A DNA stretch of 64,000 nucleotides, from contig JBBTQY010000001.1 in NCBI GenBank assembly GCA_038065475.1, forward strand, positions 26,145 to 90,144, given 5' to 3'. Each line of letters opens with the position of its first letter. Positions within the stretch are counted from its first letter, which is position 1. Below, piece by piece: positions 12,653-46,817 of this stretch. The translations under genes and the position numbers were made by a program. Below the pieces are notes generated by a model, which saw only the letters and a program-made list of their open reading frames with translations, did not search any database and had not been told where the DNA came from. Origin of the DNA: Patescibacteria group bacterium. Lineage in GTDB: Bacteria > Patescibacteriota > Minisyncoccia > Ryanbacterales > GWA2-47-10b.

Positions 12653-13885
12653 CTATTCAAAACGAAATGGCGAGTTTTTAATCATTTCGAGAGCTCTTTC
12701 CGTCCAAAATTTGCCCGTGGGTACCCCGCCGTTACATGGTCCATCGGATTCTCCTGGTAGTTTAACCCATAAAAGCGCATCTACAAGCACATTACCTGTC
12801 GTAGTAGTCGGCACCTTGCCTATAGTTACTCCAGGGGCATTACACCACTCTGTTTTATGCGGACCAGAACCATTGCGGCTCGTATCGATCACAAAGTGTT
12901 TATTACCAATAAGCGTGGAGACCTCTTGCCCAAAGGCAATCTCATCTGAAACGTACTGATAGTTAGAGACATTAAGAGCAAAGCCATCAGCCGAATCAAT
13001 GCCCGCTGTTTTAAGAAAATTAGCGATACTGCTCGCCTTGCGCCAATTGCTATGACCGGCATCAAGATATATTCGCGCTTTTGGCGCCTTGGCTCTCAGA
13101 GTCAAAATGGCTTTTTTGAGGTCCGCCAGACGGACAGCTTGGTCAGAATCACTCAAATTCGCAACAAGACCTATACTATCGGGCTCAAGGATGATCCAAG
13201 CATCATGATCTCCTATAGACTCAGCGACAGCGGTAACCCACTGAGCATAACTATCTCCCGCCGTTATGCCGCTCCAGTAACGTAGCGTTGTATGGTCAGG
13301 AATATTGTAAAGTACCAAAATAGGCATTTTACCTGCAGCTGTAGCCTTAGAAACAGTAGAAATTACGCGAGAACGAATAGTATCGAGGTTGTCGCCAATG
13401 ATCCATGTACCCTGAGGTCTACAAGAAATTTGCTGCAATAAATCAGCATCTGCTATATTGCCAGCGTTTCGTAATTCTTTCTCAACGCGAACTGCTTGCA
13501 TGGTGGGATCAACATAAAAATTTGTTGAATTTTTCGCGTATTCGCAGCTAAAAACCTTTTGTGGATTTGGTGGCGGGGGTGGGTTAACAACGACTACTGG
13601 AGGAGGAGTAGGGTTTACCGGTGGTGGAGGTGGGGAGATTGGTTTTGGCGGAGGCACAGGCAATACTGGTGGAGGAGGATTAACCACTTGAATGGGCGGC
13701 GGTACATTAGGTTGAGGAATTGTTGGTGGATTGGGAGAAATAACGACTGGAGGAATTTCTTCTTCTCTCTCCCAAGTTTGAGTCGTTTGTGTATACGTAG
13801 ATGCAAAAAGTACGAAAATAAAACCCGCAGCGATAAACACCACAGCAAGATACTGAATAAGCCCGCTTGTATTATCTCTTCCCAT
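12653..13885 (-). CDS. glycoside hydrolase family 6 (endoglucanase/cellobiohydrolase-like), membrane anchored with proline-rich linker
   Basis: N-terminal TM and a Pro-rich PPxP linker. Catalytic domain has the GH6 signatures AWIILEPDSIGL (cf. VIEPDSL) and DALLWVKLPGESDG (cf. WVKPGGESDG). Confidence 0.75.
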   Translation of the reverse strand: MGRDNTSGLIQYLAVVFIAAGFIFVLFASTYTQTTQTWEREEEIPPVVISPNPPTIPQPNVPPPIQVVNPPPPVLPVPPPKPISPPPPPVNPTPPPVVVVNPPPPPNPQKVFSCEYAKNSTNFYVDPTMQAVRVEKELRNAGNIADADLLQQISCRPQGTWIIGDNLDTIRSRVISTVSKATAAGKMPILVLYNIPDHTTLRYWSGITAGDSYAQWVTAVAESIGDHDAWIILEPDSIGLVANLSDSDQAVRLADLKKAILTLRAKAPKARIYLDAGHSNWRKASSIANFLKTAGIDSADGFALNVSNYQYVSDEIAFGQEVSTLIGNKHFVIDTSRNGSGPHKTEWCNAPGVTIGKVPTTTTGNVLVDALLWVKLPGESDGPCNGGVPTGKFWTERALEMIKNSPFRFE

Positions 13886-13890
13886 TATTC

Positions 13891-14619
13891 TTAGAATTTC
13901 CAGGCCTCCGAACGTTTTAAGGGAAAGGTGCGCCGATCACTATTGATAACGGTTTCAGCACGCTGAATGTCTTCCGGTGTTGATAGTGGATGCCAAAAAC
14001 TCGACGGCACCGCCATAATCTTTTTAGTTGCAAGCATTTGCCCAACAGCATGGGAAAGAAAATACTCACCAGTAGCGCTATGTACCTCGGGTGCGTAGTC
14101 AAAAACAGAATAATCGAGCAGCAAAACTCCCGTACTCACCATATTTGTTTTTGGATACAACGGTTTTTCTTCAATATCTCTAATATGGCCTGCGCGATCA
14201 ACTTCAACTACACCGTATGGGCGAGGATCATCGACCTCAGCAACTAAAAGAGCTCTATCATATTTTAAACACTCTTTAAATCCATCTGCTCCATGCAAAT
14301 CGTCGGCGAAGACAACAAAAAAGCGCTCGCCAGGCGACAAAAGATGCTTGGTCTTTTCTAGGGCTTTATATGTACCCTTGATCTCATCATCGCCCACATA
14401 GGTGACACGACGCCCCAAAAAATAATCTCCACAATATTCACGAATCATATCGCCGAGATATCCGACAACGATAACCAACTCATCCACCTGGCGTGGGAGC
14501 TGAGAAACCACATGCTCAATAAGGGCCCTTTTATTTACTTCGACAAGCGGCTTGGGCCTTTCAAGAGTTAAGGGGCGCATACGCGTCCCCTTGCCTGCCG
14601 CCAGAATAATTGCTTTCAT
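13891..14619 (-). CDS. sugar-phosphate nucleotidyltransferase (RmlA/GalU-like)
   Basis: MKAIILAAGKGTRMRPLTLERPKPLV is the canonical NTP-transferase N-terminus. Short (242-aa) form. Confidence 0.8.
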   Translation of the reverse strand: MKAIILAAGKGTRMRPLTLERPKPLVEVNKRALIEHVVSQLPRQVDELVIVVGYLGDMIREYCGDYFLGRRVTYVGDDEIKGTYKALEKTKHLLSPGERFFVVFADDLHGADGFKECLKYDRALLVAEVDDPRPYGVVEVDRAGHIRDIEEKPLYPKTNMVSTGVLLLDYSVFDYAPEVHSATGEYFLSHAVGQMLATKKIMAVPSSFWHPLSTPEDIQRAETVINSDRRTFPLKRSEAWKF

Positions 14620-14629
14620 GTTCGATCAA

Positions 14630-15505
14630 TCAAAACGGAATAGCCTTATAATCATCAAACGACACATCCATAAAATCCGTACGGATGCCCGCATACCCCT
14701 CTTTGACGATTGGGCTTACTCCGTACTTTGATCCTGTATCTTTTGCTTCCAATACTAGCGTCCAAGTGCCAGTTTTGCCTTTATCCATAAAAAGCTTTAT
14801 CGCGACACTGCCATCAGCATTATTTTGCGATTCACTGCGAAGGCCTATCCAAACATTTTTTGGCAATAAATTTGGATTTGTATCTCGATTATAGATGCCT
14901 GGAAATATTTTTTTATAGGCAATCGTGTGGTAAGTGCCATTTTGCTTCTTTTTGATAACCGCCGCTCCATCAACACGAGTACCTACGTAATACAGGTTAT
15001 TACCATCTTGATAGCGATTAAAAAGAAGAAGACCATTAGACGCGTCACGATTTGGGCTTTTACTCAGATTGTCTTTGTTGATCTTAAAATATGCTTCCTG
15101 CTTAAAATTGCCCCATTTGGAACGCGTTAACAAACGAAAAATGTTTTGCGGATGATACCCATTATCTGTATCGACAGGATTGGAGCTACTATAAATAAGA
15201 CGCCACTTATCAATAATGGATAAATTACCATCTATAGTTTTTCCAACTCCATCAACAATATGTAAGTAAGCACCGGAATTTAACCACCAATACGGACTAG
15301 AACTATAATCCATCTGCCCACTCTCCACTAATTTGCCGGGAACATTAAAAGTATAAACAAAATTAGAAGTAATAATCGCTGACGGTGTCTTTAACTCTGC
15401 AGCTGACAGTAAAGCTAAGCCCAATGTATTATCAAAATAATACTGACTAATGCCCGCAAGAATAAAAGATATTAACAATAACAAAATAAAAATTGGTCTT
15501 TTCAT
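14630..15505 (-). CDS. secreted hypothetical protein in the EPS operon
   Basis: Signal peptide. 291 aa, β-rich and Asn/Tyr-rich. 4-bp overlap with the deacetylase gene. AT-rich. Confidence 0.5.
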   Translation of the reverse strand: MKRPIFILLLLISFILAGISQYYFDNTLGLALLSAAELKTPSAIITSNFVYTFNVPGKLVESGQMDYSSSPYWWLNSGAYLHIVDGVGKTIDGNLSIIDKWRLIYSSSNPVDTDNGYHPQNIFRLLTRSKWGNFKQEAYFKINKDNLSKSPNRDASNGLLLFNRYQDGNNLYYVGTRVDGAAVIKKKQNGTYHTIAYKKIFPGIYNRDTNPNLLPKNVWIGLRSESQNNADGSVAIKLFMDKGKTGTWTLVLEAKDTGSKYGVSPIVKEGYAGIRTDFMDVSFDDYKAIPF

Positions 15506-17118
15506 AGTAATTTCTCAACAATTAATTGATTAACGATCACCTCGCTGTTGTTTTCAACAGGATCCCATACTTTAAACCCTATACCACCGCGATCTAAAGA
15601 GGAATCCAAGGAATCTACAGACAAAAGCTCTTCGCCATCAATAAAGCACTTTATGGTGTTCTTGTGAACGGACAACTCGAAGGTGGCATTATCCCAAGAA
15701 AAATTCTGATCTATGGAAGTTTCGGCGATCTTCTTTCTTTCTCCGTTTATAGATTCATCTATACGAATAAAACGTCCAGAGACATTACAAGAAGTAAAAT
15801 TTTTACTATCTTTATATCGCGCGACCAGAGATAGCGATTCTCCTCTCGTCCAATCAATTAATGCCTTCAAATGATAATTTTCCCAATTACGCGTACCGTC
15901 TAAAACAACAGCAGCACCCGTTGTTTTTTCTCCTGCGCGCAAAACTAGCGAAGAATTCTTTAATCCTATGTTTCCCCATTCCTTTATCCATTCCTCATTA
16001 AGAGAAAAATCATAAATATGTAAAGGTATTTCTTTAGACCGCCCCGCATTCAATACCCTTAATAAGTCTGCATCTGTCCATGCTCCTCCAACATCTATAC
16101 GCTTAACTAAAAAAGTATTGTCGTCAAAATAATTTTGAGTAAAACCAGCACTAGGATATGTTTGGAAAAATGCTAAATCATAATTATCTTTAACTGAATT
16201 GAGCAAAACCCTTTGGGCCTCGGGATAATTTGTTATATTTTGGGCAAAGTCACCATAAGGAAAAGCGAAAGAAACAGAAGCTATATCCAAAACTCTCTCA
16301 ATTTTTTCCTTAACTAAGCTTATATCATGCCCGATACGTTGCTCATATTCATCATCTGTCTCTAATCTTCCAAGCTCTTTCAACCAAAGTTTATTAGTAT
16401 AATAGTGTCCCTGTTCGCCGTTTATAGAGATTGATTGAAAAACATGGCCACTATCGGCATGTGCTTGAATCTCCCAACGTCCACTGCGCTTCATCGCCCG
16501 TAGTTCATTAGCATTTAGATAATAAGAACTTTTTCTATCACTATCAGTCAACGAATGGCCACTGATAATAAAAGTGACAGCATTATAATCCAATGCTCTC
16601 AAAATGGGATCGACTGGGTAGTAACTTGACTTCGCTCCATCATCAAACGTTAATAAAAATGATTTATTCGGTAGGGTCTTTTCACCCTTAACGAAGGAGT
16701 TAAAATCCTCGACACTTATAGTTTTCCAGCCAGCTTGTTTGAGCGCAAACATCTGAGCCTCAAAATTCGTTTTCGTAATATTTTCTCCATCAGGGATGTC
16801 TACAAGGCCGTGGTAAAGAAGCACGGGTACAGACTCCGCGGTACCCGTAACAACGACGTTTTCTACTGTTGATCTATTTGAGAATATTCTCGCTAGACTG
16901 CCGAGCATATCATTCTCCGCATAAGCCAATTTTGCAGCATAAAAGCCATAAGCTGCAGTTTCTTTGCTATCCAAAATCATTCCGTCGGTAAATTGGGATA
17001 AACTCTCCCTAATGAACAAGAAGGCATAACTGCCACAAAAAAGTAATATAGCAATTACGGTAACTCGCAAAACCTTTAATCTTGAAAAATCTAAATATTT
17101 CATTATCGAGTTCCCCAT
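15502..17118 (-). CDS. polysaccharide deacetylase (CE4/NodB-domain) with C-terminal β-rich domain, membrane anchored
   Basis: N-terminal TM. NodB-type motifs (LLTFDDGAKS, …HADSGH). A ~250-aa C-terminal extension gives a PgaB-like overall layout. Confidence 0.75.
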   Translation of the reverse strand: MGNSIMKYLDFSRLKVLRVTVIAILLFCGSYAFLFIRESLSQFTDGMILDSKETAAYGFYAAKLAYAENDMLGSLARIFSNRSTVENVVVTGTAESVPVLLYHGLVDIPDGENITKTNFEAQMFALKQAGWKTISVEDFNSFVKGEKTLPNKSFLLTFDDGAKSSYYPVDPILRALDYNAVTFIISGHSLTDSDRKSSYYLNANELRAMKRSGRWEIQAHADSGHVFQSISINGEQGHYYTNKLWLKELGRLETDDEYEQRIGHDISLVKEKIERVLDIASVSFAFPYGDFAQNITNYPEAQRVLLNSVKDNYDLAFFQTYPSAGFTQNYFDDNTFLVKRIDVGGAWTDADLLRVLNAGRSKEIPLHIYDFSLNEEWIKEWGNIGLKNSSLVLRAGEKTTGAAVVLDGTRNWENYHLKALIDWTRGESLSLVARYKDSKNFTSCNVSGRFIRIDESINGERKKIAETSIDQNFSWDNATFELSVHKNTIKCFIDGEELLSVDSLDSSLDRGGIGFKVWDPVENNSEVIVNQLIVEKLL

Positions 17119-18389
17119 CTAGAATCGCGAATAGTTATCATCGCCCAAGGCAGTTGCCACATAAGCATCACTGTATAAAACCAAAAAGTCATCACGGACA
17201 AAAACCAAGCACGCGGACCCACTTGAGTACGATAATAAATCCCGTGCAATAATAACATTAAGAATAAACCAGCCAAATAGGCGAGAGGAATGCTTCCTGT
17301 CAAATACGGATGCCAAATAACAGCCCTTATAAAAACAATGGGCGCACTAAGGGCAAGAATGACATAGGAATAATACGATAGAGCAGCAAAAAAATTTTTA
17401 CGCCACATAAACGCGCTGGCAATTAGCGTCTCTCTAATCCAAGATTTTTTCCATCTCTGCTGCTGTTTAATATATTTACCAAGCGTATCTGGCACAACTG
17501 TGTGCGCCTTTGCTTCTGGAGAATAAACAGCTTCATATTTTCGAATAATAAAATTTGTTAAACTTCTGTCATCACCGAATGTACACTCACTTCCTAAGAA
17601 CCTCTGATTTAGCCAAACGTCAATAAACTCGAGTAAATACTCTCTACGATATGCAGAACAACAGCCGGGACAGCAAGTTACATTACCAAAAACGGATTCA
17701 GCTGCCTTATAAACACTAAAAGCGATAAAATATCTTGTGGCCTGCATCTGTGTTAAAAGATTTGTATCTCTATTAAAAACATCTGTATGCCCAGAGACAG
17801 CTCCAACTCTCGGATTAGAAAAATATTTTACAAGATGCTTGACACAATCAGGGGCAATAAAACTATCCGAATCAATAAATATAACTATTTCATGGTTTGC
17901 CCTTCTTACCCCTTCTGCCATACCTGCTCTTTTACCGCGATTAACTTTCCAATTAACAACGGTAACTGGTATTTCTTGACCTATCTCCTTTTTAATTTTC
18001 AACATCTCAGCATAGGTACTATCTGTTGAGCCATCATTAATAGCAATAATTTCTATTTTTTCTTTAGGATAATCCGCATGCAAAAAGCGCCTAATCGTCT
18101 CAGCAACATTATCTTCTTCGTTTTTTGCTGGAACAACAAAAGTGATTGAAGGCTGATAGCCCTCATCATGCTTAATAGATCTATGGAAATATGCAAGAAA
18201 AAATCTTGAAATAATATAAATAAAAATTAAAATACTATAGAATTTAAAAAAGGTTACCCCCCCGACAAAGCTAGTCGTGCTAATTTTAAATAAAAGTATC
18301 AAATAGAGCACAACAAAAAAAAGAAACCAAAAACCAAAATCACTAAATACTGCGAGCCTTTTTTTAATTTTATTAAAAATTTTTGCCAT
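17103..18389 (-). CDS. processive family-2 glycosyltransferase (PgaC/HasA/cellulose-synthase-like synthase)
   Basis: Two N-terminal TMs, then a GT-A domain with DGSTD and DSDS motifs and QQQRWKKSW (QxxRW), then C-terminal TM helices. Confidence 0.8.
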   Translation of the reverse strand: MAKIFNKIKKRLAVFSDFGFWFLFFVVLYLILLFKISTTSFVGGVTFFKFYSILIFIYIISRFFLAYFHRSIKHDEGYQPSITFVVPAKNEEDNVAETIRRFLHADYPKEKIEIIAINDGSTDSTYAEMLKIKKEIGQEIPVTVVNWKVNRGKRAGMAEGVRRANHEIVIFIDSDSFIAPDCVKHLVKYFSNPRVGAVSGHTDVFNRDTNLLTQMQATRYFIAFSVYKAAESVFGNVTCCPGCCSAYRREYLLEFIDVWLNQRFLGSECTFGDDRSLTNFIIRKYEAVYSPEAKAHTVVPDTLGKYIKQQQRWKKSWIRETLIASAFMWRKNFFAALSYYSYVILALSAPIVFIRAVIWHPYLTGSIPLAYLAGLFLMLLLHGIYYRTQVGPRAWFLSVMTFWFYTVMLMWQLPWAMITIRDSRWGTR

Positions 18390-18391
18390 AC

Positions 18392-19690
18392 CTATCGCCC
18401 TATACCATTGTAGATAATATTGGAGTCCAAAAATATATCTTTTTCTAGACAGTTACGCCCGTCTACAATTGTTCTGACTCCATATTTTTTTAGATCATCA
18501 GGAGTAAGTTTCTTGAAAATGCTATGTGCGGTGGCGACGATAACACCGATTGATCCCTGTAAGGCTTCCTCTAAAGTTTTTACATCTGAACGATCAAGTA
18601 CAAATGGATCATAGGCAACCACCTCTGCTCCAAACTCTTTCAAAATTTTAATAATCTCAAACGATGGGCTCTCGCGACAATCATCAATATCTGCCTTATA
18701 TGAAAGTCCCAATACAGCTATGCGTGACCCATTGATAGCAATCTTCTTTTCATTGAGTCCTGCGATCAATTGCTCAACGGCGAAATGGGGCATGCCGTTG
18801 TTTATACGGCGAGCGAGCGCCAAAAAATCATGATCGAAACCATTCTTTTTTGCATACTCAATAAGATAATACGGATCAACAGGTATACAGTGTCCGCCTA
18901 CACCGCAGCCTGGATAGTGAGGCATAAAAGCAAAGGGCTTGGTGGCTGCGCCATCAATTACATTTACTACATCAATGCCGAGGCGTGAGAATGACCGCGC
19001 GAGTTCGTTTACAAATGCAATATTGATATCTCGAAAAGAATTCTCAACAACTTTAACTGCCTCTGCCTCTTTGAGGTTTCCCATCGGCTTTACCGTGCCA
19101 GTCAAAATTGATTCATAAAATGCCACGGCCTTTTTGAGTCCTGCCTCATCAAAGCTGCCAACAACGCGCGGTATATTTTCCACGTTCCATTTTTTATCAC
19201 CCGGATTGATACGCTCAGGACAGTGTGCCAAAGAAAAATCTTTACCACACTCCATGCCGGAGATTGATTCGAGTATCGGTAATACCACGCTCTCTGAAAC
19301 TCCCGGGTTCACTGTTGACTCTAAGATAACTAAGGTATCTTTTTGAAGATACGGAGCAATCGAGCGCACGGCATTTTCCACCGGCTCAAGATTTGGCATA
19401 TGATTTTCATACACCGGTGTTGGTACGCAAATAATCACAATGCCGCAATCTTTAACTACAGAGAAATCATGGGTGGGTGTAAATGAAACTTCCTGCAAAG
19501 CCTGCTCAATCGCCTCATCCTGTATTGGGGATTTCTTTTGTTTTAAGAGCTCTATCTTCTGCTGGCTGACATCTATGCCAAAAACCTCATAGCCCTTGCG
19601 GGCCGCAAGCAAAACAAGCGGAAGACCCACATACCCAAGGCCTACAACCGCTATTTTTTCCTTATCTGGTAATGTTTTTTTGGCCTCCAT
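18392..19690 (-). CDS. nucleotide-sugar dehydrogenase (UDP-glucose / UDP-N-acetylhexosamine 6-dehydrogenase family)
   Basis: N-terminal Rossmann motif IAVVGLGYVGLPLV, central catalytic Cys region, and a C-terminal UDP-binding domain. Confidence 0.85.
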   Translation of the reverse strand: MEAKKTLPDKEKIAVVGLGYVGLPLVLLAARKGYEVFGIDVSQQKIELLKQKKSPIQDEAIEQALQEVSFTPTHDFSVVKDCGIVIICVPTPVYENHMPNLEPVENAVRSIAPYLQKDTLVILESTVNPGVSESVVLPILESISGMECGKDFSLAHCPERINPGDKKWNVENIPRVVGSFDEAGLKKAVAFYESILTGTVKPMGNLKEAEAVKVVENSFRDINIAFVNELARSFSRLGIDVVNVIDGAATKPFAFMPHYPGCGVGGHCIPVDPYYLIEYAKKNGFDHDFLALARRINNGMPHFAVEQLIAGLNEKKIAINGSRIAVLGLSYKADIDDCRESPSFEIIKILKEFGAEVVAYDPFVLDRSDVKTLEEALQGSIGVIVATAHSIFKKLTPDDLKKYGVRTIVDGRNCLEKDIFLDSNIIYNGIGR

Positions 19691-19955: not shown

Positions 19956-22900
19956 TTAGAGTTGTGTAATGCTGGCGGCGTTATTTACCCACTGATAGAG
20001 CCCTGTCCAGTTGAGTTTAATAACGCCAACCGCTACGCGATAGGTGCCTGGGCCTGGCGGCGTAAATTCATAGTTAAACACACGAGACTCACCTGCTTGC
20101 AAGGTTTCGCCATTGTAAAATTCTTGGAATACTTGCGTGCCTCCAGCGTCGTACACTTCAAGATTGAGTACTACATGACCGGGTTGAGTGCCGGTATTTT
20201 GAAGGGTCACATCGATATCACGCATACCGGACGCTCCAGTGACCACTGTACTCGCGTGTGTGGGCACAAAATCGGTCATCGGCGTGGTAGATCCGCCCAA
20301 TGACCATGCAGGGTCATTTACATCAACATCCGCCGTTGAACCAAATCGCCCATGGTGACCACTATTTGATCGATCGATAATATCTTGCCCGAAGTTTTCA
20401 TTGAACTTCCAGTATTTGATAAGACCAATCTGAGAGCCGATAAGAGGTTGACCGAGCGTCGCCAAAATATCATCATCTGCACGCACAATATTCCAAACAC
20501 GCATATCCTCGAGAACACCTTTAAATCCCCTTGCGGAATGATCCGCAGGATTGCCGCCGATCACCACAGGAGCTGACGTTTGTGCGATATTGCCCGTTTT
20601 CGGCACCGTTGCGACCACCGCTCCATTTTTATAGAGCCGCATCGCAGCACCGTCATAGCGCGCAGCAATGTGCGTAGTCTCGTTGAGTCCAAATGAACCG
20701 CCAACAAGTTTTGTGACTACACCGTCAGTATTAAGCCTAAAAACAAATTGATTTTGATCATTCACCCCGATAGACCAAACATAATCATTGTCAGTAATAC
20801 CTGTAGCCTTCGCGAGTAGGTCTGCGTTGCGACCAAGCTCTGACGCCTTAAACTCGGCCTCGAAAGTAAAGGTGGGCTCTTCTACGTCCCACACTCCGAT
20901 ATCGACATAATCATTTACACCGTCAAAAACGAGCGCGCCATCGTTATTCGTTGGTATAACAGAAGGTACACTCGCGCAATCGCCAAACCCCTCTGCTGGA
21001 TAACTAAAGATAGCCGTATTATCACCCCACTTATTTTTGACCCATGATGCAGGTCCGGGTGTTTCAAACGATGGATTCTTTACAAGATTGGAAGTATCAT
21101 TACCCTCCTTGCGTACATAAAACTGATCAACAGTTAATGAGCCGACACCATCAATAATATGGAAAAAAGTAACCGTACCTGTATTTGGGGGCGTCAGTAT
21201 AGATGCAGTGGCATCTTGCCATGTTGCTGCGGCGGGCAAAGTACCAAGCCCTCGATATTGTACCGATCCGTCATGCATTCTAAGCACCGCAACAATACGC
21301 GTTGGTACAGTTGCCTTATATTTATCTGAAAAATAATAAGTTAAATCTGATGCAACTACTAACGGCTCGTGATACCACTTGGCATCACCAGTCACATATT
21401 CAGTGATCTCAACTTTCGCTCCACGAACGGTGCAGGCTTCTATTTTTTCATATTCAAAGTTAACGAGTGCAGCGTATGCATTTTCATAGTATTCAAGCTT
21501 CATCGTATGGATTCCGGGTGTCATTTGATGAGTAACAGTATAAGTTGTCGCTGCCTGATCATGCCACTCATCTATGACAAGAACATCATCAACATAAAGC
21601 CGCACACCATCGTCAGCTGTTACAGTAAATTGATAAGTTGCGTCTTCAAAGTCTGCTTGCTTTATCCAGCGCGCTGAGAACCGGTCTGGTTGGATAAGTG
21701 CATGCGGAGAATTAAGCCCCCAATCAAAATTGATCGAGGCATCTTGCTGTACAACGCTCGGAGCTCCGCTCAGATTTATGTTATTGAAATATGATGCGCA
21801 AAATTCATCAGCACCGACGACACCCGATACCGGATAAGAAAAAGTTACCGTATTATCGCCCCAACTATTCTGAGCCCAGTTATCTGATCCTCCCTCTTCA
21901 AATGACCAATCGCTAATAAGATTATTTTCTTGATCTGATATATCGTAAAGTTCATAAGCATCCACTTCCAAAAACCCTACAGATCGAATGAGATGAAAAA
22001 TAGAAATACGTTGAGCATCCTCGGGTACAAAAAACGTTTTTTCGTTTTTTGTCCAGGTGTCAGACGGCGCCACTTCTCCTAACCAGCGGTACAAAAACGT
22101 TCCGTTGGTCAGACGGATTTGCAAAATTAAAGTTGAGGAAACATCTGATCGAGAGTAATTAGAAAAATTATATAATCCAGCGCCTGGCACAACATCTACC
22201 TCTTTCATGCGCCACTTGGCGTCACCGGACGTATATGCCGACATATCAATGCGAGCTGCCTTCGCGCTACAAATATCTTTCTTGGCATACGCAAGTTTTG
22301 CGACCGCCGCAAAACCATTTTCATAATATTCCATACGAATAGTATGGAGCCCCGGAGTGATTGAGCGCTCAACGGTATGAGCTGTCGCTGCTTGATCGTG
22401 CCATTCATCTATGATAGCGACATCGTCAATAAAGAGGCGCACGCCATCATCAGCATTTACCGTGAACTCATATAGCCCTCCATCAAAATTTTCTTGTCGC
22501 GTCCAACGAGCAGAAAAATGGTCATCAGGAATTACAGGATTCGGTGAACCAAGCCCCCAATCAAAATTGATCGAGGCATCACTACGCGTAAGAGCTGGCG
22601 TACCTATCGGCGTTTGAGTATTATAATACTCGCCGATAAAACCATTCGAAGCATCAACTAATCCTATATTAATACTTTTCTTCACAGAAAGACCTTGGGA
22701 ATCTGTTGCTGTTAAAGCAAGCTCGAAATATGTATCACTACCATGATCAGGAACGACGAAGCTACCAGACTCGCCCGTCATATCTAATAGAGGATGGTTA
22801 TGACACGTGCCAAACGGACAATGATGAACAATAACCACCCACTGAAGACTGCCCCCAGCAAGGGCACCGTCCTCAAGGTCACTGGCGGATCCGGAAAAAT

Positions 22901-24497
22901 TCAATGTATCACCTTGATGTACTGATGTTCCGTCAGTTGGAGCGATGATTGTCGCTGTAGGCTGATGATTGCCTGGCTGAATCTGCACAGAAGCCGAACC
23001 GGCTGCATTAAAGCTATCGGTGACAGTTAATGTTACGTTAAATATGCCAGCTGTCGTATATGTATATGTTGGATTTGCCTCTTCAGAGGTTGCCCCGTTA
23101 CCAAAATCCCAATGATAACTAATAGTATTTCCATCTTGGTCGGAAGATCCAGCGCTTGAAAAATGTACAGTCATTGGTACAGAGCCGCCTACTGCATCGG
23201 TAGAAATTTTTGCTGTGGGGGCATGATTATCGCTCGAGTAACGCACGCGCACAATCTCATCAGGATAAATAGAAACATAATAAAGATGCCCATCCGGCCC
23301 CATGGTGATATCCACCGGTGTTGCAACCTGCTGACTAAAAATCTTGTTACTATCAGGAACAAGGTTATTTAAATCGTCCAACCTTAAGGTACGCATTTCA
23401 TTGCGGCCGTAATCACTGAAAAAGAAAGAGCCCTGATACTCAGCCGGGAACTCTGTACCGGTATAAAAAGTACCACCAACTACCGCAGCTCCCGGCGGAT
23501 GATTATACGTATAGAGAGGTTTTGTATCTCCGCCTGCCGCATAAAAATCTTGGCACGCACCCATAAAATGATACCCCTCCTGCTGCTCGTCTCCCTCCCA
23601 ACATGGCCATCCATAATTGCCACCTGGAGTAATAACGTTGATTTCTTCAATAGCCGACCAGCCAACATCGCCTACAACAAGAGTGTTCGTACCAGGCTTA
23701 ATATTAAAACGGTATGGATTGCGAAACCCATATGCCCATACTTTTGAGCGATTTTCGTTTGGATCGCCAGTATAAAAAGGGTTTGATTCAATACCGGTGC
23801 CGTCTGTATTAATGTGTAAAATTTTACCCGCCAAACTATCAAGGTTTTGGGTACGCAACGCAAGCGGATCTACTGTCGTGAATGACGAGGCGTCACCTGA
23901 ACTGACAAAAAGAGTACCATCATCGGCAACCCGAACAGATCCAATAGTATGGCTTGGGGAGTCGCTCGGAATACAATCAGCACCTACGGGAAGATCTTCG
24001 CAAGACGCGGCACTAGCCGTCCCTAAGATGATCGTTTCACTGCCAGGTAGAGCAACATCGCCATCAGCGACAACACGAGAAAGACGACTTGTTTTAGTGC
24101 CAGTGTAATCATCGGGATTATTTTCATAAGTATAGAGTAGATAAATAAAATGGTTCGTCTCAAAGTCCTTATCAAAGGCAAGATCAAGTAAACCACGATC
24201 ATTATAATCATTGACGTGTGAGAGAGTGATAAATGGCGTAGGTAAAACAACACCATCCTTTACAACTTTCACCACTCCTCCCTTTTCCACCACAAACATT
24301 CGGCCATCGGGAGCAAAGCGTGTCGCTACGGGCAAATTAAAACCAGAGGCTACAGACTCAAGGTAAAAACCTGCTGGCAAATCAGTTGCCGCAGCACCCC
24401 ACGATACGGGGATGAAATGCCAAACACTCAAGGCTAAAAAAAGCCCGAGAACTATAGATATTTTTACTTTTATGGATTTCGTTTTCATGCTTAGCAT
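19956..24497 (-). CDS. giant secreted multidomain surface protein: GSDH-like β-propeller + PKD + 2×(PA14 + β-sandwich) + LamG/ConA-like + CARDB-like
   Basis: Signal peptide MKTKSIKVKISIVLGLFLALSV. GSDH motifs (VASGFNLPVATRFAPDGRMFVVEKGG). PKD domain (…YHWDFGNGATS…). Two PA14 domains (…DHFSARWTRQ…DDGVRLFIDDV and …DRFSARWIKQ…DDGVRLYVDDV). LamG-like and CARDB-like C-terminus. The ORF track extends to 24593, but the signal peptide begins at the internal Met (24488/24497), which also removes the overlap with the upstream GT39 gene. Confidence 0.8.
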   Translation of the reverse strand: MLSMKTKSIKVKISIVLGLFLALSVWHFIPVSWGAAATDLPAGFYLESVASGFNLPVATRFAPDGRMFVVEKGGVVKVVKDGVVLPTPFITLSHVNDYNDRGLLDLAFDKDFETNHFIYLLYTYENNPDDYTGTKTSRLSRVVADGDVALPGSETIILGTASAASCEDLPVGADCIPSDSPSHTIGSVRVADDGTLFVSSGDASSFTTVDPLALRTQNLDSLAGKILHINTDGTGIESNPFYTGDPNENRSKVWAYGFRNPYRFNIKPGTNTLVVGDVGWSAIEEINVITPGGNYGWPCWEGDEQQEGYHFMGACQDFYAAGGDTKPLYTYNHPPGAAVVGGTFYTGTEFPAEYQGSFFFSDYGRNEMRTLRLDDLNNLVPDSNKIFSQQVATPVDITMGPDGHLYYVSIYPDEIVRVRYSSDNHAPTAKISTDAVGGSVPMTVHFSSAGSSDQDGNTISYHWDFGNGATSEEANPTYTYTTAGIFNVTLTVTDSFNAAGSASVQIQPGNHQPTATIIAPTDGTSVHQGDTLNFSGSASDLEDGALAGGSLQWVVIVHHCPFGTCHNHPLLDMTGESGSFVVPDHGSDTYFELALTATDSQGLSVKKSINIGLVDASNGFIGEYYNTQTPIGTPALTRSDASINFDWGLGSPNPVIPDDHFSARWTRQENFDGGLYEFTVNADDGVRLFIDDVAIIDEWHDQAATAHTVERSITPGLHTIRMEYYENGFAAVAKLAYAKKDICSAKAARIDMSAYTSGDAKWRMKEVDVVPGAGLYNFSNYSRSDVSSTLILQIRLTNGTFLYRWLGEVAPSDTWTKNEKTFFVPEDAQRISIFHLIRSVGFLEVDAYELYDISDQENNLISDWSFEEGGSDNWAQNSWGDNTVTFSYPVSGVVGADEFCASYFNNINLSGAPSVVQQDASINFDWGLNSPHALIQPDRFSARWIKQADFEDATYQFTVTADDGVRLYVDDVLVIDEWHDQAATTYTVTHQMTPGIHTMKLEYYENAYAALVNFEYEKIEACTVRGAKVEITEYVTGDAKWYHEPLVVASDLTYYFSDKYKATVPTRIVAVLRMHDGSVQYRGLGTLPAAATWQDATASILTPPNTGTVTFFHIIDGVGSLTVDQFYVRKEGNDTSNLVKNPSFETPGPASWVKNKWGDNTAIFSYPAEGFGDCASVPSVIPTNNDGALVFDGVNDYVDIGVWDVEEPTFTFEAEFKASELGRNADLLAKATGITDNDYVWSIGVNDQNQFVFRLNTDGVVTKLVGGSFGLNETTHIAARYDGAAMRLYKNGAVVATVPKTGNIAQTSAPVVIGGNPADHSARGFKGVLEDMRVWNIVRADDDILATLGQPLIGSQIGLIKYWKFNENFGQDIIDRSNSGHHGRFGSTADVDVNDPAWSLGGSTTPMTDFVPTHASTVVTGASGMRDIDVTLQNTGTQPGHVVLNLEVYDAGGTQVFQEFYNGETLQAGESRVFNYEFTPPGPGTYRVAVGVIKLNWTGLYQWVNNAASITQL

Positions 24498-24531
24498 TAC
24501 TAGGATATTCTTAGCACACAACAAGCCCCCA

Positions 24532-26133
24532 TTACAAAGCCTCGGGCACCGTGAGATCGCTGTTTTGATTACAGCCAAGTGTAGCTGCGACACGCTGCGA
24601 CTTGTCTCGAAGCTTATAAATCTTCACATCTTGATACGAATACACGCAATCAAACTCGCTCGCCAACCACTCACCGCTACGAAATCGCTCATCAATACGA
24701 TCTTTTTCTCTTAACACGGCCCAATCAACCGCGCGCTCAGGCGCCTCTAGTGCGGCGCCGAAAAGCTTGGGATCGCCCACATGCACCCAATACTTGAAAG
24801 GAATACGACTTGCAAAAGGCACAGCATCATTATTAAAAATATCGACCAAGATTAAACCGTGATCGTAATTATCTTGCAACCACTCACCCGCTTCCAGTCG
24901 ACTTTCATTGGCGTGCGCTCCGGCAAAACCATCAACAGCCTCATGCAGAGTTATAATATTATTACTAAGCAACATAACACCGTACTCAATAAAAATTACA
25001 ACGAGCATAAAGATACCAACCTTTTGAAATCGCGCCCCGATAACACCGACAAGGATGGCAAAAAATGGCACAAACATAAGTGCGTAGCGAACATTAAATA
25101 TAAGATACGGTGCTAGTTGGGGAACAAAGATAACGGCATTACCGCCAAATATATTGAGAATATAGTAAACGATGTGAACACCTATCAAGAGAACAAAAAG
25201 ATATCTTAATTGTTTATGCTTTAAGATTTGCCACACAATATATATGAGCCCGAAAATGCTAAAAATAATTAAGAACCATCCTGAGACCATTTGCGCCGCA
25301 TACCATATGTGAGCCAGGGTATTTTCAAGGTCGCCACGCGAGGGTAAGAAGCCGGCAGCTGCGAGTGACTCTTGTTGACCCTTCGAAGAATACTCCCCTA
25401 CTGCAAAATAAAATGGGTTATCAAAAATTGCATAATTCCAAGTAAGCCATAGAACGGGGCCGAGGAACGCAAGAGACGCAAATAAAATAATGGTTGCCTC
25501 AACCTTTTTAGAATCTCGAGAAGTAAGATATAAATAGAGAGCAACAACACATACCGTTGCGATAGCAAAAATCCAACCATCATAACGCGATAGCGTCGCG
25601 AATAAAAACGCTACGCCACTGGCGACCAAATAAATATCTTTAAGAGAACGTGCCCACAGCAAAGCATACATTAGAGCACCGAGCATGGCAGCTATATAAA
25701 ACATCTCTGACAAAGGCGTAGCCTGCATATAAAGCGTATTGGGATTTAGCATAAAGATAAGAGCTGCCAAACCCCCAGCAATCGGTCCTGCCAAAGTCTC
25801 TCCAATTTTGAAAAGAAACCATGAAGCAAGAATGTAAGCGAGCATCGAGAAAAAAATACCAGCAAACCCCGAATAGTAGAGAAAATCTATCCAGATAAAC
25901 GGCAGCATAACAAGGCTTGGTGCAGGCAACCATACATATCCCAATTGAGAAAATCCCGGAGACGTGCCGTCGACCACACGTCGCGACAAATTTAATCGAG
26001 CGGTGGCATCACCGCTAGCATTAGCGAGATCAAGATACATTACTAAAGCCGTCACGACCAAGCTCAAGAAAATAGCTAGAGCTAAAACAAAATATTTTAT
26101 ATATGGTTTATATTTTTCGATCATAGCAATCAT
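24532..26133 (-). CDS. GT39/PMT_2-family membrane glycosyltransferase (protein O-mannosyltransferase / ArnT-like)
   Basis: 533 aa with ~12 TM helices and the loop/TM layout of the PMT_2/ArnT superfamily. 4-bp overlap with the upstream GT2. Confidence 0.65.
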   Translation of the reverse strand: MIAMIEKYKPYIKYFVLALAIFLSLVVTALVMYLDLANASGDATARLNLSRRVVDGTSPGFSQLGYVWLPAPSLVMLPFIWIDFLYYSGFAGIFFSMLAYILASWFLFKIGETLAGPIAGGLAALIFMLNPNTLYMQATPLSEMFYIAAMLGALMYALLWARSLKDIYLVASGVAFLFATLSRYDGWIFAIATVCVVALYLYLTSRDSKKVEATIILFASLAFLGPVLWLTWNYAIFDNPFYFAVGEYSSKGQQESLAAAGFLPSRGDLENTLAHIWYAAQMVSGWFLIIFSIFGLIYIVWQILKHKQLRYLFVLLIGVHIVYYILNIFGGNAVIFVPQLAPYLIFNVRYALMFVPFFAILVGVIGARFQKVGIFMLVVIFIEYGVMLLSNNIITLHEAVDGFAGAHANESRLEAGEWLQDNYDHGLILVDIFNNDAVPFASRIPFKYWVHVGDPKLFGAALEAPERAVDWAVLREKDRIDERFRSGEWLASEFDCVYSYQDVKIYKLRDKSQRVAATLGCNQNSDLTVPEAL

Positions 26134-37186: not shown

Positions 37187-37299
37187 AATAACACAGTGCC
37201 TCTACGTAGACAAACAGCTATTTATATGGTACTAATAATACGAATTTGATCTTCAACAACGAGAACGAAAGTTCTCCTGACGGGAAAGGAAACACGAAA

Positions 37300-37866
37300 A
37301 TGAAAACGCAAAACGGACGACCGACCTGCAAGACAAACCTCTGGGCAGCGATCAACCACACGGCGATCCTACTCGCCTTCATCATCGGCTTCATCGCCGG
37401 CAGCATCGCCACCGCGCATGCCGAGGCGCTATGCCGACCCAAGAGCGGAGTAGCCGTGCGTGTGCGTACCGAATGCAAGAAGCAGGAAGTGCAGCTCGAC
37501 CCGATCACCCTCGGCCTGCAAGGCCCTGCTGGCCCCACCGGCCCGCAAGGTCCTGAAGGAATACTGCCAGCGGGCTTCCTCCCAACTCCGGCATTCGACA
37601 GCGGCTGGATCGAACTACCGAACCATGGCGCGGTCATCGATGTACCACACAACGTCGGAGGAGATTACAACGACTACTTCATCGAAGCCAGCTACAGACG
37701 GCCCGCTGAAAACGGTACGCTGAAATCTCATCAAACCGCAGCGGATGTTATCTGGTGGGAAGACGTGACACCAAATAACATCCAAATCGTCACAAATGGA
37801 GATGTGACGAACAACTTCGATGCAGCGCGTATCAGAATCTGGATCATTCACCAGGGCCAGCCCTGA
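37300..37866 (+). CDS. secreted protein with collagen-like (GXY)5 repeat
   Basis: Signal peptide, then GLQGPAGPTGPQGPEG, then a ~100-aa C-terminal β-rich domain. GC-rich. AAGGA SD-like element. Confidence 0.55.
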   Translation: MKTQNGRPTCKTNLWAAINHTAILLAFIIGFIAGSIATAHAEALCRPKSGVAVRVRTECKKQEVQLDPITLGLQGPAGPTGPQGPEGILPAGFLPTPAFDSGWIELPNHGAVIDVPHNVGGDYNDYFIEASYRRPAENGTLKSHQTAADVIWWEDVTPNNIQIVTNGDVTNNFDAARIRIWIIHQGQP

Positions 37867-40339: not shown

Positions 40340-41569
40340 ATGCCTGAGGTGCTTGCGGTCGCTCTGCCGCTCTCGAAACTCGCGCGTGAACTCTACTTCA
40401 CCGATGTTTTTGACGTGCTCATGGTGACCATCATCATGTATGCGGGGCTCATGCTCTTTAAACGGACACGTTCAAACTCGGTCTTTGCGGGCATCGCCAT
40501 CGTGGTAGGTATCTACGCCGTCTCGCAAGTATTCAACCTCTATCTTACCTCACTCATACTGCGCGCATTCTTTGGCGTATTTATCGTAGTATTGGTAGTC
40601 ATTTTTCAAGACGAGCTGCGAAGATTTTTTGAATTTTTAGCTCTTCTCGGCACACGCCGTGAACAGCGCGATGAAGCCATGGCGGTCTCGCCCCTTATTA
40701 ATAGCCTGTTGCAGGCGGCAACCAACCTTGCGTACCGGAAGATTGGGGCACTCGTCATACTCAGTGGTATAGAAAACATTGACCGACATGTGGAAGGCGG
40801 ACGGGTGGTTGATGGTATCGTCTCACAAGAACTTTTGGAAAGTATTTTTGATCCCACCTCGCCCGGACACGATGGCGCTGTCATCATCAGACACAATCGT
40901 ATCGCTATGCTCGGCACTCATCTGCCACTCTCAAATGATTTTGAACAAATTGGTAAATATGGCACGCGACACGCCGCAGGCCTCGGTATCGCCGAGCGAT
41001 CTGATGCGCTCGCACTCATCGTCTCTGAAGAGCGGGGGCAGATCTCGATCGCGCAAAATGGTAAATTTGAAACCTTTGATGATATCAGCAAAGTAGAAGA
41101 TCGCCTGCGCGATTTCTTTCGCGTTAAATTCCCGCGCGAAGCGTCACCCGTGTGGCGCAATATTGTTCGCAGAAACACAAGCGAAAAAATAGGCGCACTC
41201 GCCATCTCGTCAGTCCTTTGGTTTTTCTTAGTATATCAAACGGGAACCGTGCGACGTGATTTTGTAGTCCCCATCACCTACCGCAATCTCAATGAGACAC
41301 TGGTGGTTGAAACCTCAAACCCCAAGGAGATCACTATCACACTCGAATCACGCGGACGCGCATTTGACCAGCTTGATCCTGCATCACTCGAGATACTGGT
41401 GGATGCCAGCGGCTTTACACCCGGTAAGAAAAAGCTTGTCATTGGTGACAACATGGTCAAACGGCCACTCACCTTCTCGGTCATCTCACTCTCACCACCC
41501 AACATTCAGCTGACTATCGGTAAATCTCCCGAAATACTAGAGACTGATTTGGCACCTCAGGGCCGCTAG
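40340..41569 (+). CDS. cdaA: diadenylate cyclase CdaA fused to a YbbR (CdaR-like) domain
   Basis: Three N-terminal TMs, then a DAC domain (DGAVIIRHNRI, GTRHAAGLGIAERSDALALIVSEERGQISIAQNGK). This is followed by an additional TM and a YbbR-like β domain (…ILVDASGFTPGKKKLVIGDNMV…). Confidence 0.8.
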   Translation: MPEVLAVALPLSKLARELYFTDVFDVLMVTIIMYAGLMLFKRTRSNSVFAGIAIVVGIYAVSQVFNLYLTSLILRAFFGVFIVVLVVIFQDELRRFFEFLALLGTRREQRDEAMAVSPLINSLLQAATNLAYRKIGALVILSGIENIDRHVEGGRVVDGIVSQELLESIFDPTSPGHDGAVIIRHNRIAMLGTHLPLSNDFEQIGKYGTRHAAGLGIAERSDALALIVSEERGQISIAQNGKFETFDDISKVEDRLRDFFRVKFPREASPVWRNIVRRNTSEKIGALAISSVLWFFLVYQTGTVRRDFVVPITYRNLNETLVVETSNPKEITITLESRGRAFDQLDPASLEILVDASGFTPGKKKLVIGDNMVKRPLTFSVISLSPPNIQLTIGKSPEILETDLAPQGR

Positions 41570-41625
41570 CGCGCCATTGACAACTAACCCCTTACGGGGG
41601 TTTACTTGACTACGGAGGGGAGCCG

Positions 41626-42513
41626 TTGGGGTTCCTTTTGTGTTTTAGGATCTTTGACTACACAACGGGGGGAAATGTGAGCCTAGACACTTTACGTGCA
41701 AAAGCGAAGATCTGGTCCTCCAGATTCATTCCGCCACAGCATTGCATACCTCTATCCAACGAGGCGTATCGGGAGATCCGATTCTTCCGGCATCCAGACG
41801 TACGCGTCCTCGACGGCGTGATCCATCACAAGGTCAAAATCGAAAACGGCGTGATCGTCCTCATGTGCTGCGACGGCGATCGCTTTCTTGCTGGACTCCT
41901 GTCCATCGCAGGGCTGTTCGCGACCAAGCACCGGTGGTCGACGCGCGTCGCAAGCTGGATGAAACGTACTTCGCTACTCTTCATCTGGGCCTTCGTGTTC
42001 ATCTATCCACGCATGCACGTCATCTCACGACACGCGGGTGCCCATCGAGTCGTGAAGGGGTCACGCACCAATGCGCCGGGTCGCGCAACAGACAAAGACC
42101 TGCTCGACGACATCATGATGGCGATAGAGCGCATGGGCATCTACCAGATTGTCCTGCTCGACCACTGCGCCTGCCTGAAGCTTGGCGATCATAACTTCAC
42201 GGTCAACGAGCAATTCCACGATCTATTCGAAGCTCGAGATCGCATTGTCGCAGAGTATGCGAAGGTGCGATCTGAAAAAGCCGTTCGTCTTGCTGCGGAT
42301 GGCGACCTGCACGCAGCGACTACCTTGCCAAACCTCCAGGTCATCTGCATGTGCCAGGTCGACTACGGAAAGAAAACTTGGTGGCAAAGACGAAAACTAC
42401 GCACCTACCACCTGGATGGTGCACGGCTCATCGAAGTCGACATCACCAGGCACAAGCCGGCTCACAACCCGAAGATCGCGCGAGCGATCTCCGACTATCT
42501 CGAGGCTGCCTGA
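41626..42513 (+). CDS. hypothetical protein (GC-rich island)
   Basis: TTG start preceded by GGAGGGG. Terminator follows. No recognisable family. Confidence 0.45.
   Translation: MGFLLCFRIFDYTTGGNVSLDTLRAKAKIWSSRFIPPQHCIPLSNEAYREIRFFRHPDVRVLDGVIHHKVKIENGVIVLMCCDGDRFLAGLLSIAGLFATKHRWSTRVASWMKRTSLLFIWAFVFIYPRMHVISRHAGAHRVVKGSRTNAPGRATDKDLLDDIMMAIERMGIYQIVLLDHCACLKLGDHNFTVNEQFHDLFEARDRIVAEYAKVRSEKAVRLAADGDLHAATTLPNLQVICMCQVDYGKKTWWQRRKLRTYHLDGARLIEVDITRHKPAHNPKIARAISDYLEAA

Positions 42514-44281: not shown

Positions 44282-46817
<2,536 letters not shown>

Follow-up and report, generated by a model that had tools for sequence, protein, structure and literature searches.

The locus and its product

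The stretch analysed here, called the window below, is 64,000 nucleotides of contig JBBTQY010000001.1 from a Patescibacteria group bacterium (assembly GCA_038065475.1), and all positions are counted from its first letter. On its forward strand lies a cdaA gene whose product joins a diadenylate cyclase (DAC) of the CdaA type to a YbbR domain, the domain of the CdaA regulator CdaR, in one polypeptide. The open reading frame (ORF) is uninterrupted from the ATG at 40340 to the stop codon ending at 41569 and encodes 409 amino acids (aa). Its features are listed here, with TM standing for transmembrane and pLDDT for the predicted local distance difference test score of the structure model.

40340..41569, + strand: complete CdaA-YbbR fusion gene, 409 aa, stop codon included (ORF listing)
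40388..40618, + strand: CdaA N-terminal membrane domain with three TM helices, aa 17-93 (Pfam PF19293, CdaA_N)
40712..41065, + strand: DAC catalytic domain, aa 125-242 (Pfam PF02457)
40871..40879, + strand: DGA active-site motif, aa 178-180 (read from the sequence)
40967..40975, + strand: RHA at the place of the canonical RHR, aa 210-212 (read from the sequence)
41084..41176, + strand: cytoplasmic linker, made up of a helix after the DAC domain, aa 249-263, and then a basic stretch next to the membrane, aa 264-279 (AlphaFold, alignment)
41177..41245, + strand: fourth TM helix (TM4), aa 280-302 (hydropathy, AlphaFold, conservation)
41246..41524, + strand: single YbbR domain, predicted to be extracytoplasmic, aa 303-395
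41525..41569, + strand: short C-terminal tail with little conservation, aa 396-409, plus the stop codon (alignment A1, low pLDDT)

An earlier reading of this DNA, made from its letters and ORF translations and here called the sequence-only reading, had described one 409-aa polypeptide carrying both cyclase and regulator, and had pointed to a sequencing frameshift or stop between the two halves as what would speak against it. None lies there. The exact protein is recorded at NCBI as 'MAG: diadenylate cyclase [Patescibacteria group bacterium]' (MAG, metagenome-assembled genome), and a product identical over its 409 aa is encoded on five contigs that stem from separate assemblies, among them a 347-kb ENA contig (sample Hain_H41) and one in a Logan assembly of another run. 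P0002, a relative 90% identical in amino acids, comes from a third sample and has kept both the frame and the length of 409 aa. Where the DAC domain ends and the chain passes by way of TM4 to the YbbR domain, an alignment of 118 homologues is essentially gap-free, and the junction positions K283 (99%), W294 (100%) and P311 (97%) are among the most conserved outside the active site.

The membrane domain and the cyclase domain

The N-terminal membrane domain is matched by PF19293 at aa 17-93 with an E-value of 6.4e-12 and 45.9 bits, as compared to a cut-off of 23.8. The hydropathy profile has peaks centred near aa 27-32, 55-65 and 73-88, and an AlphaFold model of the full protein, built on a 31-sequence alignment and with a mean pLDDT of 77, has helices at 20-42, 46-64 and 68-88. 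The DAC family, PF02457, matches aa 125-242 with an E-value of 6e-35 and 119.9 bits (cut-off 27), and the match covers profile positions 2-118 of 119. The three N-terminal TM helices and the complete catalytic domain of the sequence-only reading were both recovered in this way, each Pfam family above its curated cut-off. The NCBIfam equivalog for CdaA, TIGR00159, was missed narrowly, 184.8 bits as compared to 188.8, in a match that spans aa 19-254 and profile positions 10-244 of 254. A family profile matched the solved CdaA catalytic domains at 1e-38 to 1e-52 and the full-length solved CdaA, 9g69, at 3.5e-52.

The active-site motifs are HDGA at aa 177-180, GTRHAAGLG at aa 208-216 and VSEERGQISIA at aa 228-238. 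In alignment A1, of the protein with its relatives, the residues H177, D178, G179, A180, T209, R210, H211, S229, E230 and E231 are invariant, and DGA is present in 118 of 120 homologues. The motifs quoted earlier are all there, but the label RHR given to one of them was wrong, the residues being RHA. Of the 120 fused homologues, 116 have S, A, T or G at its third position and just one has R. By these alignments the change to RH(S/A/T/G) is clade-wide and spans many phyla, and it could mark the fused subfamily; for the DAC active site it is a small point. The RHR motif is needed for ATP binding in M. tuberculosis DacA, as known from a triple RHR-to-AAA mutant, and this triple mutant is the sole form tested in the literature examined, where single-residue data on the third position were not found. 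We treat RHA as compatible with cyclase activity because R210, H211, HDGA and SEE are invariant and the triple mutant alone is on record. A second DAC gene was found neither in the 64-kb window nor in the flanks of 83 related loci, and the protein is therefore probably the working enzyme. From its domains and motifs it is predicted to be an active cyclase that belongs to, and works like, the CdaA family.

Linker, fourth helix and topology

After the DAC domain the model has two linker helices, at 249-263 and 271-277. The linker is gap-free in the 118 homologues, and L252, F259, P265 and N279 are conserved in it. The fourth TM helix that had been proposed to follow the DAC domain is seen as a hydropathy peak at about aa 284-302, weaker than the three N-terminal ones, and as a helix at 280-297 in the AlphaFold model, and both K283 and W294 lie in the segment. 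The hydropathy profile as a whole gives three N-terminal segments plus this fourth, in agreement with the four helices put forward in the sequence-only reading.

From what is established for CdaA, the DAC domain is placed in the cytoplasm, and the TM helices have positive charges next to their cytoplasmic ends. Since a single hydrophobic helix separates the DAC and YbbR domains, the latter would have to sit across the membrane, and the positive charges of WRNIVRRNTSEK, which stands before TM4 on its cytoplasmic side, fit such a topology. That the YbbR domain is extracytoplasmic, with the DAC domain inside, is a well-supported prediction.

OmpA-type domains bind peptidoglycan and are extracytoplasmic. 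One member of the family, P0103 (574 aa), has an extra C-terminal domain of this type (PF00691) after two YbbR domains, a link between ectodomain and cell wall that speaks for a position outside the cytoplasm.

The C-terminal YbbR domain

Residues 303-395 form a mostly-beta domain in the full-length model, with pLDDT values of 80-87. The YbbR domain was modelled at a pLDDT of 89.6, and every solved YbbR structure ranks first in the fold comparison. The protein itself scores 16.2 bits against the Pfam YbbR family, PF07949 (aa 310-365, E-value 0.013), where the cut-off is 22.3. The sequence-only reading had made its claim depend on a YbbR profile search of the C-terminal half, and since the single sequence falls below the cut-off this search had to be read with care. 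Compared with 177,635 distinct PDB sequences, the C-terminal 113 residues matched one entry only, the YbbR-family domain 2l3u (E-value 0.0086). A profile of the C-terminal domain from 29 family members, A2, matched 2l3u at 7.8e-7 and 5hqh at 3.7e-4, and BH0266 weakly. The entry title of 5hqh is 'Ybbr like Domain of lmo2119' (Listeria), and lmo2119 is cdaR. Furthermore, PF07949 directly matches 24 of the 31 aligned full-length relatives, with a best E-value of 2.4e-15. The profile search on the C-terminal half fails for the single sequence and succeeds for the family, and the YbbR-like beta-domain of the sequence-only reading stands: both profile and fold place the C-terminal domain in the YbbR family.

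One YbbR domain in place of two

In alignment A1 the relatives run about 85 residues further, into a second YbbR domain, and this protein stops 14 residues past the first, which leaves it about 77 aa below the family norm. The tail of 14 residues, modelled with low pLDDT, occupies the site where the relatives enter the second domain. Domains were counted with family-built hidden Markov models (HMMs) on stop-to-stop ORFs, in 84 DAC-bearing ORFs, of which 83 come from the loci L003-L085 and one is the window's own. Two YbbR domains were found in 76 of them, one in seven and none in one, so that 83 of the 84 are fused. The one-domain set belongs to several lineages and consists of this protein, P0014 (locus L005), whose one-domain form was found on five contigs, and the ORFs of L038, L039, L048, L070 and L072. 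The ORF with no YbbR domain, P0004 (L006, 4001-4966), lies on contig CALRCC010000001.1 of a Ca. Ryanbacteria MAG. It is the nearest species-representative homologue, with 78% identity, and it matches to residue 321 and ends about 20 residues past TM4. The lineage shows forms with two, one and zero YbbR domains, the last resting on this single MAG contig.

No remnant of a second YbbR domain was found downstream of the gene in any frame; a tblastn search with the C-terminal tails of homologues returned only the end of the first domain, at 41474-41524. Neither was a YbbR remnant seen downstream in L006, which points to a clean deletion there. By these comparisons, the present copy is a shorter form, with one YbbR domain, of a protein that normally has two, and the second domain was lost in its lineage.

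Selection on the gene was estimated as dN/dS (omega) by the Nei-Gojobori method, against the gene of the 90%-identical relative, at a dS of about 1.2-1.5 where synonymous sites are near saturation. Omega was 0.036 for the membrane domain, 0.039 for the DAC domain and 0.044 for the linker with TM4. For the YbbR domain, where 87 of 95 residues are identical, it was 0.037, a constraint equal to that on the DAC domain. Relaxation was confined to the tail, where 8 of the 14 residues are identical to P0002 and omega is 0.085, a value from very few sites. This pattern of substitution indicates that the one-domain form is a maintained architecture, not debris.

Distribution of the fused form

Among the best 120 database homologues the median length is 486 aa, and 102 are 475-499 aa long. 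Most carry a precomputed annotation of CdaA_N, DAC and YbbR, and they belong to Patescibacteria lineages, Abyssubacteria, Poribacteria and Omnitrophota. Scanning GTDB with a single genome for each species gave at least 539 relatives. The best 80 of these species loci all match through the first YbbR domain, with the exception of L006, and include Ca. Ryan-, Niyogi-, Lipton- and Nealsonbacteria and WWE3, as well as Syntrophales/Smithella/Syntrophus, Desulfomonilia, Omnitrophota, Planctomycetota and Elusimicrobia. The comparison of gene lengths that the sequence-only reading had called for gives about 486 aa as typical of the fused form. The fusion is not exceptional: judged by the best 120 homologues and the best 80 species loci, this is the standard form of CdaA in Patescibacteria and several other phyla. 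The fused CdaA-YbbR proteins would, from this distribution, be a large and old family and the norm in this part of the tree. As the fusion is normal in the phylum, the gene is an ordinary, slightly shortened member of a known family, and as the fused form is widespread, the separate genes of the Firmicutes are one solution among several.

CdaA with YbbR is reportedly listed by Galperin 2023 ('All DACs in a row'), by He et al. 2020 and in the Pfam/InterPro architecture tables. Full-text searches for papers that describe the fused form explicitly for the candidate phyla radiation gave nothing beyond a remark from 2011, where a 'DAC-ybbR' architecture is mentioned from database analysis (PMC11254362).

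Genomic context

In Firmicutes cdaA, cdaR and glmM are separate genes in one module, and GlmM is an inhibitor of the cyclase (PMC10636490, PMC8316131, PMC10117814). We searched for glmM-type phosphohexomutases by the signature [STGA][AG]SHN[PK] together with D[GP]D[GAC]DR; neither the 64-kb window nor the flanks of the 83 related loci contained any, which agrees with the earlier remark that no glmM lies downstream and extends it to the whole window. A glmM gene may sit elsewhere in the genome. Stand-alone YbbR or CdaR ORFs were likewise absent from the window and from the same flanks, as searched with the family-built HMMs.

The upstream neighbour of cdaA is a divergent leucyl aminopeptidase (M17) gene, pepA. 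Downstream there is a gene for a 278-aa protein, and then a SulP/STAS transporter gene and an F-type ATP synthase operon on the other strand. Two features adjoin cdaA on the downstream side.

41615..41649, + strand: tentative hairpin of terminator type, followed by a U-rich tail, in the spacer that separates cdaA from the next gene (consensus scan, RNA fold)
41677-42513, + strand: 278-aa protein of unassigned family, directly downstream of cdaA (also readable from a TTG at 41626)

The 278-aa protein is cysteine-rich (CCDGDRF, DHCAC) and has no Pfam, NCBIfam or PDB match above noise. Its gene adjoins cdaA in the close relatives L006 and L086 but not in distant ones, where the downstream neighbours are a CAP-domain protein, pantothenate kinase and TGT; cdaA has no conserved operon partner. 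The hairpin is not above background (4 sites as compared to 2.3 expected, fold z-score -1.2), nor was anything in a promoter scan of the intergenic region. Rfam at gathering thresholds found zero RNA families in the 64 kb, that is, no tRNA, no rRNA and no riboswitch, for c-di-AMP (cyclic di-AMP) or otherwise.

Some other features of the window were observed. On the reverse strand a block of low GC content at 12653-19690 (0.38-0.40, as compared to about 0.48 elsewhere) holds a surface-polysaccharide gene cluster, with genes for a GH6 glycosidase, a sugar-nucleotidyl transferase, a 291-aa protein of unassigned family, a polysaccharide deacetylase, a GT2/chitin-synthase-like transferase and UDP-glucose dehydrogenase. 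This cluster may have been acquired horizontally. The reverse strand also encodes, at 19956-24593, a protein of 1545 aa with a glucose/sorbosone dehydrogenase beta-propeller, a PKD domain, two PA14 domains and laminin-G/ConA-like domains; it is probably a surface adhesin or a protein that binds carbohydrates. The ATP synthase epsilon subunit (44282-44521, reverse strand, 79 aa) consists of the N-terminal beta-sandwich, PF02823, only and lacks the C-terminal regulatory helices. At 37246-37866 on the forward strand there is an ORF of 206 aa in which a signal or TM segment is predicted and a short stretch, GPxGPxGPxGP, is collagen-like. No Pfam annotation is on record for it, and no NCBIfam match was found.

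Interpretation and alternatives

The best explanation of the gene, and a very probable one, is that it encodes a membrane-bound cyclase of the CdaA type with a CdaR-like partner in the same chain. Its architecture and family assignment in particular can be given with high confidence. Several points weigh against this explanation. The protein sequence alone reaches neither the TIGR00159 cut-off nor that of Pfam YbbR, and TM4 is only moderately hydrophobic, with a Kyte-Doolittle value of about 1.5. The RHR motif is RHA, so that full catalytic competence is assumed from clade-wide conservation. A protein as close as P0004 does without any YbbR domain, which makes the ectodomain dispensable in at least one lineage and argues that the cyclase core does not strictly depend on it. 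We found no measured activity, topology or regulation for any fused member in the literature, and the direction of the CdaR effect is disputed between species (PMC10117814).

Three other explanations concern what kind of gene this is. An artefact of assembly or sequencing that joined separate cdaA and cdaR genes has next to no probability. Nothing in our analysis speaks in its favour, although there is a possible precedent in the 'DAC-ybbR' of a draft genome of S. pneumoniae (PMC11254362), streptococci normally having separate genes. It is effectively ruled out by the identical protein on five contigs of separate assemblies, by the relative with 90% identity that keeps frame and length at a dS of about 1.4 and by the junction without a gap across 118 homologues, and the fusion in 83 of the 84 DAC-bearing ORFs examined points the same way; for practical purposes an assembly or frameshift artefact is excluded. 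Another explanation takes the one-domain form for a decaying remnant, truncated on its way to loss and with a non-functional leftover YbbR domain. The missing 77 or so residues, the poor conservation of the last 14 and the nearest species representative, where the whole YbbR region is absent, would all suit such a remnant, but a domain held at the omega of the DAC domain, with 87 of 95 residues identical across a dS of about 1.5, largely rules it out. The length of 409 aa is moreover retained in P0002, independent one-domain forms exist in P0014 (five contigs), L038, L039, L048, L070 and L072, and there is no pseudogene debris downstream; we consider decay extremely unlikely. It is also conceivable that RHA has altered or abolished catalysis in this DAC homologue and that the protein serves as a sensor or scaffold instead of a cyclase. 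The alanine at the third position, where 116 of the 120 fused homologues have S, A, T or G, the need for RHR in ATP binding by the M. tuberculosis enzyme (triple mutant) and the slight shortfall in the TIGR00159 score are in line with this. Set against them are the invariance of R210, H211, HDGA, SEE and the other active-site columns, the omega of 0.039 and very strong Pfam score of the DAC domain, and the spread of the substitution through the clade over many phyla, and an inactive cyclase is highly unlikely.

How the single-chain cyclase would be controlled can be proposed from the analogous CdaR, a protein anchored in the membrane whose YbbR domains lie outside the cell. CdaR binds CdaA, reportedly via the TM region, and modulates its activity (PMC10636490, PMC8316131, PMC10117814). 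In the fused protein the three N-terminal TM helices would anchor a cytoplasmic DAC domain, which would make c-di-AMP from two ATP when two such domains meet head to head. The post-DAC helix and basic linker would lead into TM4, and TM4 would take the chain to the outside, where it ends in one YbbR domain. This domain, facing the wall, may sense or report the state of the cell envelope, and packing of TM4 against TM1-3 could relay the signal and tune the pairing of the DAC domains, and so the level of c-di-AMP. The job of CdaR in Firmicutes would be done in cis, at a fixed stoichiometry of 1:1 and without an adjacent GlmM. We propose envelope sensing because CdaR is anchored, contacts CdaA via the TM region and alters its activity, and we would put the chances of this allosteric-sensor mechanism at about even.

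The main rival to it holds that the YbbR domain is a passive module for localisation or anchoring, at the cell wall or a site such as the septum, and that the cyclase is controlled in some other way. The number of YbbR domains varies between two, one and zero, the close relative that has none suggests that the cyclase core works alone, and the OmpA-type domain of P0103 fits wall anchoring. Moreover, the effect of CdaR is inconsistent between species and is absent in L. lactis, where cdaR is a pseudogene (PMC10117814). However, the conservation of W294 (100%) and K283 (99%) in TM4 is easier to explain by a specific helix-helix contact than by a passive tether, selection holds the YbbR domain as tightly as the catalytic one (omega 0.037), and CdaR binds CdaA directly in three Firmicutes (PMC10117814). 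A purely passive role seems to us rather unlikely.

We regard a further suggestion as speculative and doubtful as well, namely that the fused family, with its RH[S/A/T] motif and no linked glmM, represents a distinct, GlmM-independent control of c-di-AMP, and that the series of two, one and zero YbbR domains in the Ryanbacteria-like lineage reflects a stepwise loss of envelope sensing in reduced-genome, possibly episymbiotic bacteria. If true, these proteins would be natural single-chain CdaA-CdaR complexes, and the truncation series could settle whether YbbR activates or inhibits. The control of CdaA by YbbR is debated, activation being reported for B. subtilis and inhibition for Listeria and S. 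aureus (PMC10117814). The importance of the present gene is small, as the exact protein is already public as a diadenylate cyclase and its architecture is normal for the phylum. It has a modest practical value: a single chain fixes the stoichiometry and topology of CdaA and YbbR, and the versions with two, one and zero domains (78-90% identity or same family) can be taken as they are into activity assays and structural studies.

Comparison with known systems

The ribosomal protein L25/CTC is a relative of the YbbR domain in fold only. It has no sequence similarity to the domain described here, the likeness is not a family assignment, and its context differs, the YbbR domain being tethered to the membrane and, as predicted, extracytoplasmic.

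With the CdaA/DacA proteins of Firmicutes (B. subtilis and L. monocytogenes, as well as S. aureus) the protein shares the three N-terminal TM helices, the cytoplasmic DAC domain and the DGA motif. The Firmicute CdaA ends after the DAC domain and a C-terminal helix, whereas here TM4 and the YbbR domain continue the same chain; a nearby glmM is lacking, and RHA stands for RHR. The Firmicute CdaR, such as Lmo2119 of Listeria, SP_1560 of S. pneumoniae, Dhaf_0833 of D. hafniense and BH0266 of B. halodurans, is a separate protein that has a TM helix at its N-terminus, and that of B. subtilis has four YbbR domains (PMC10636490), as compared to one YbbR domain in cis with the cyclase here.

The closest systems are the fused cyclases, annotated in databases and about 485 aa long, that occur in Patescibacteria, Thermodesulfobacteriota (Syntrophales/Smithella), Desulfomonilia, Omnitrophota, Planctomycetota, Elusimicrobia, Abyssubacteria and Poribacteria, one of them being P0010, 'diadenylate cyclase CdaA [Patescibacteria group bacterium]'. 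The protein has the same order of three TM helices, DAC domain, linker, TM4 and YbbR, with an identity of 36-57% over the whole shared length. It also shares their K283/W294 junction motifs and the RH[S/A/T] in place of RHR, and like them it has no adjacent glmM or separate cdaR. It differs from them in its single YbbR domain, where 76 of the 84 ORFs have two, and in ending 14 residues after that domain with no trace of the second.

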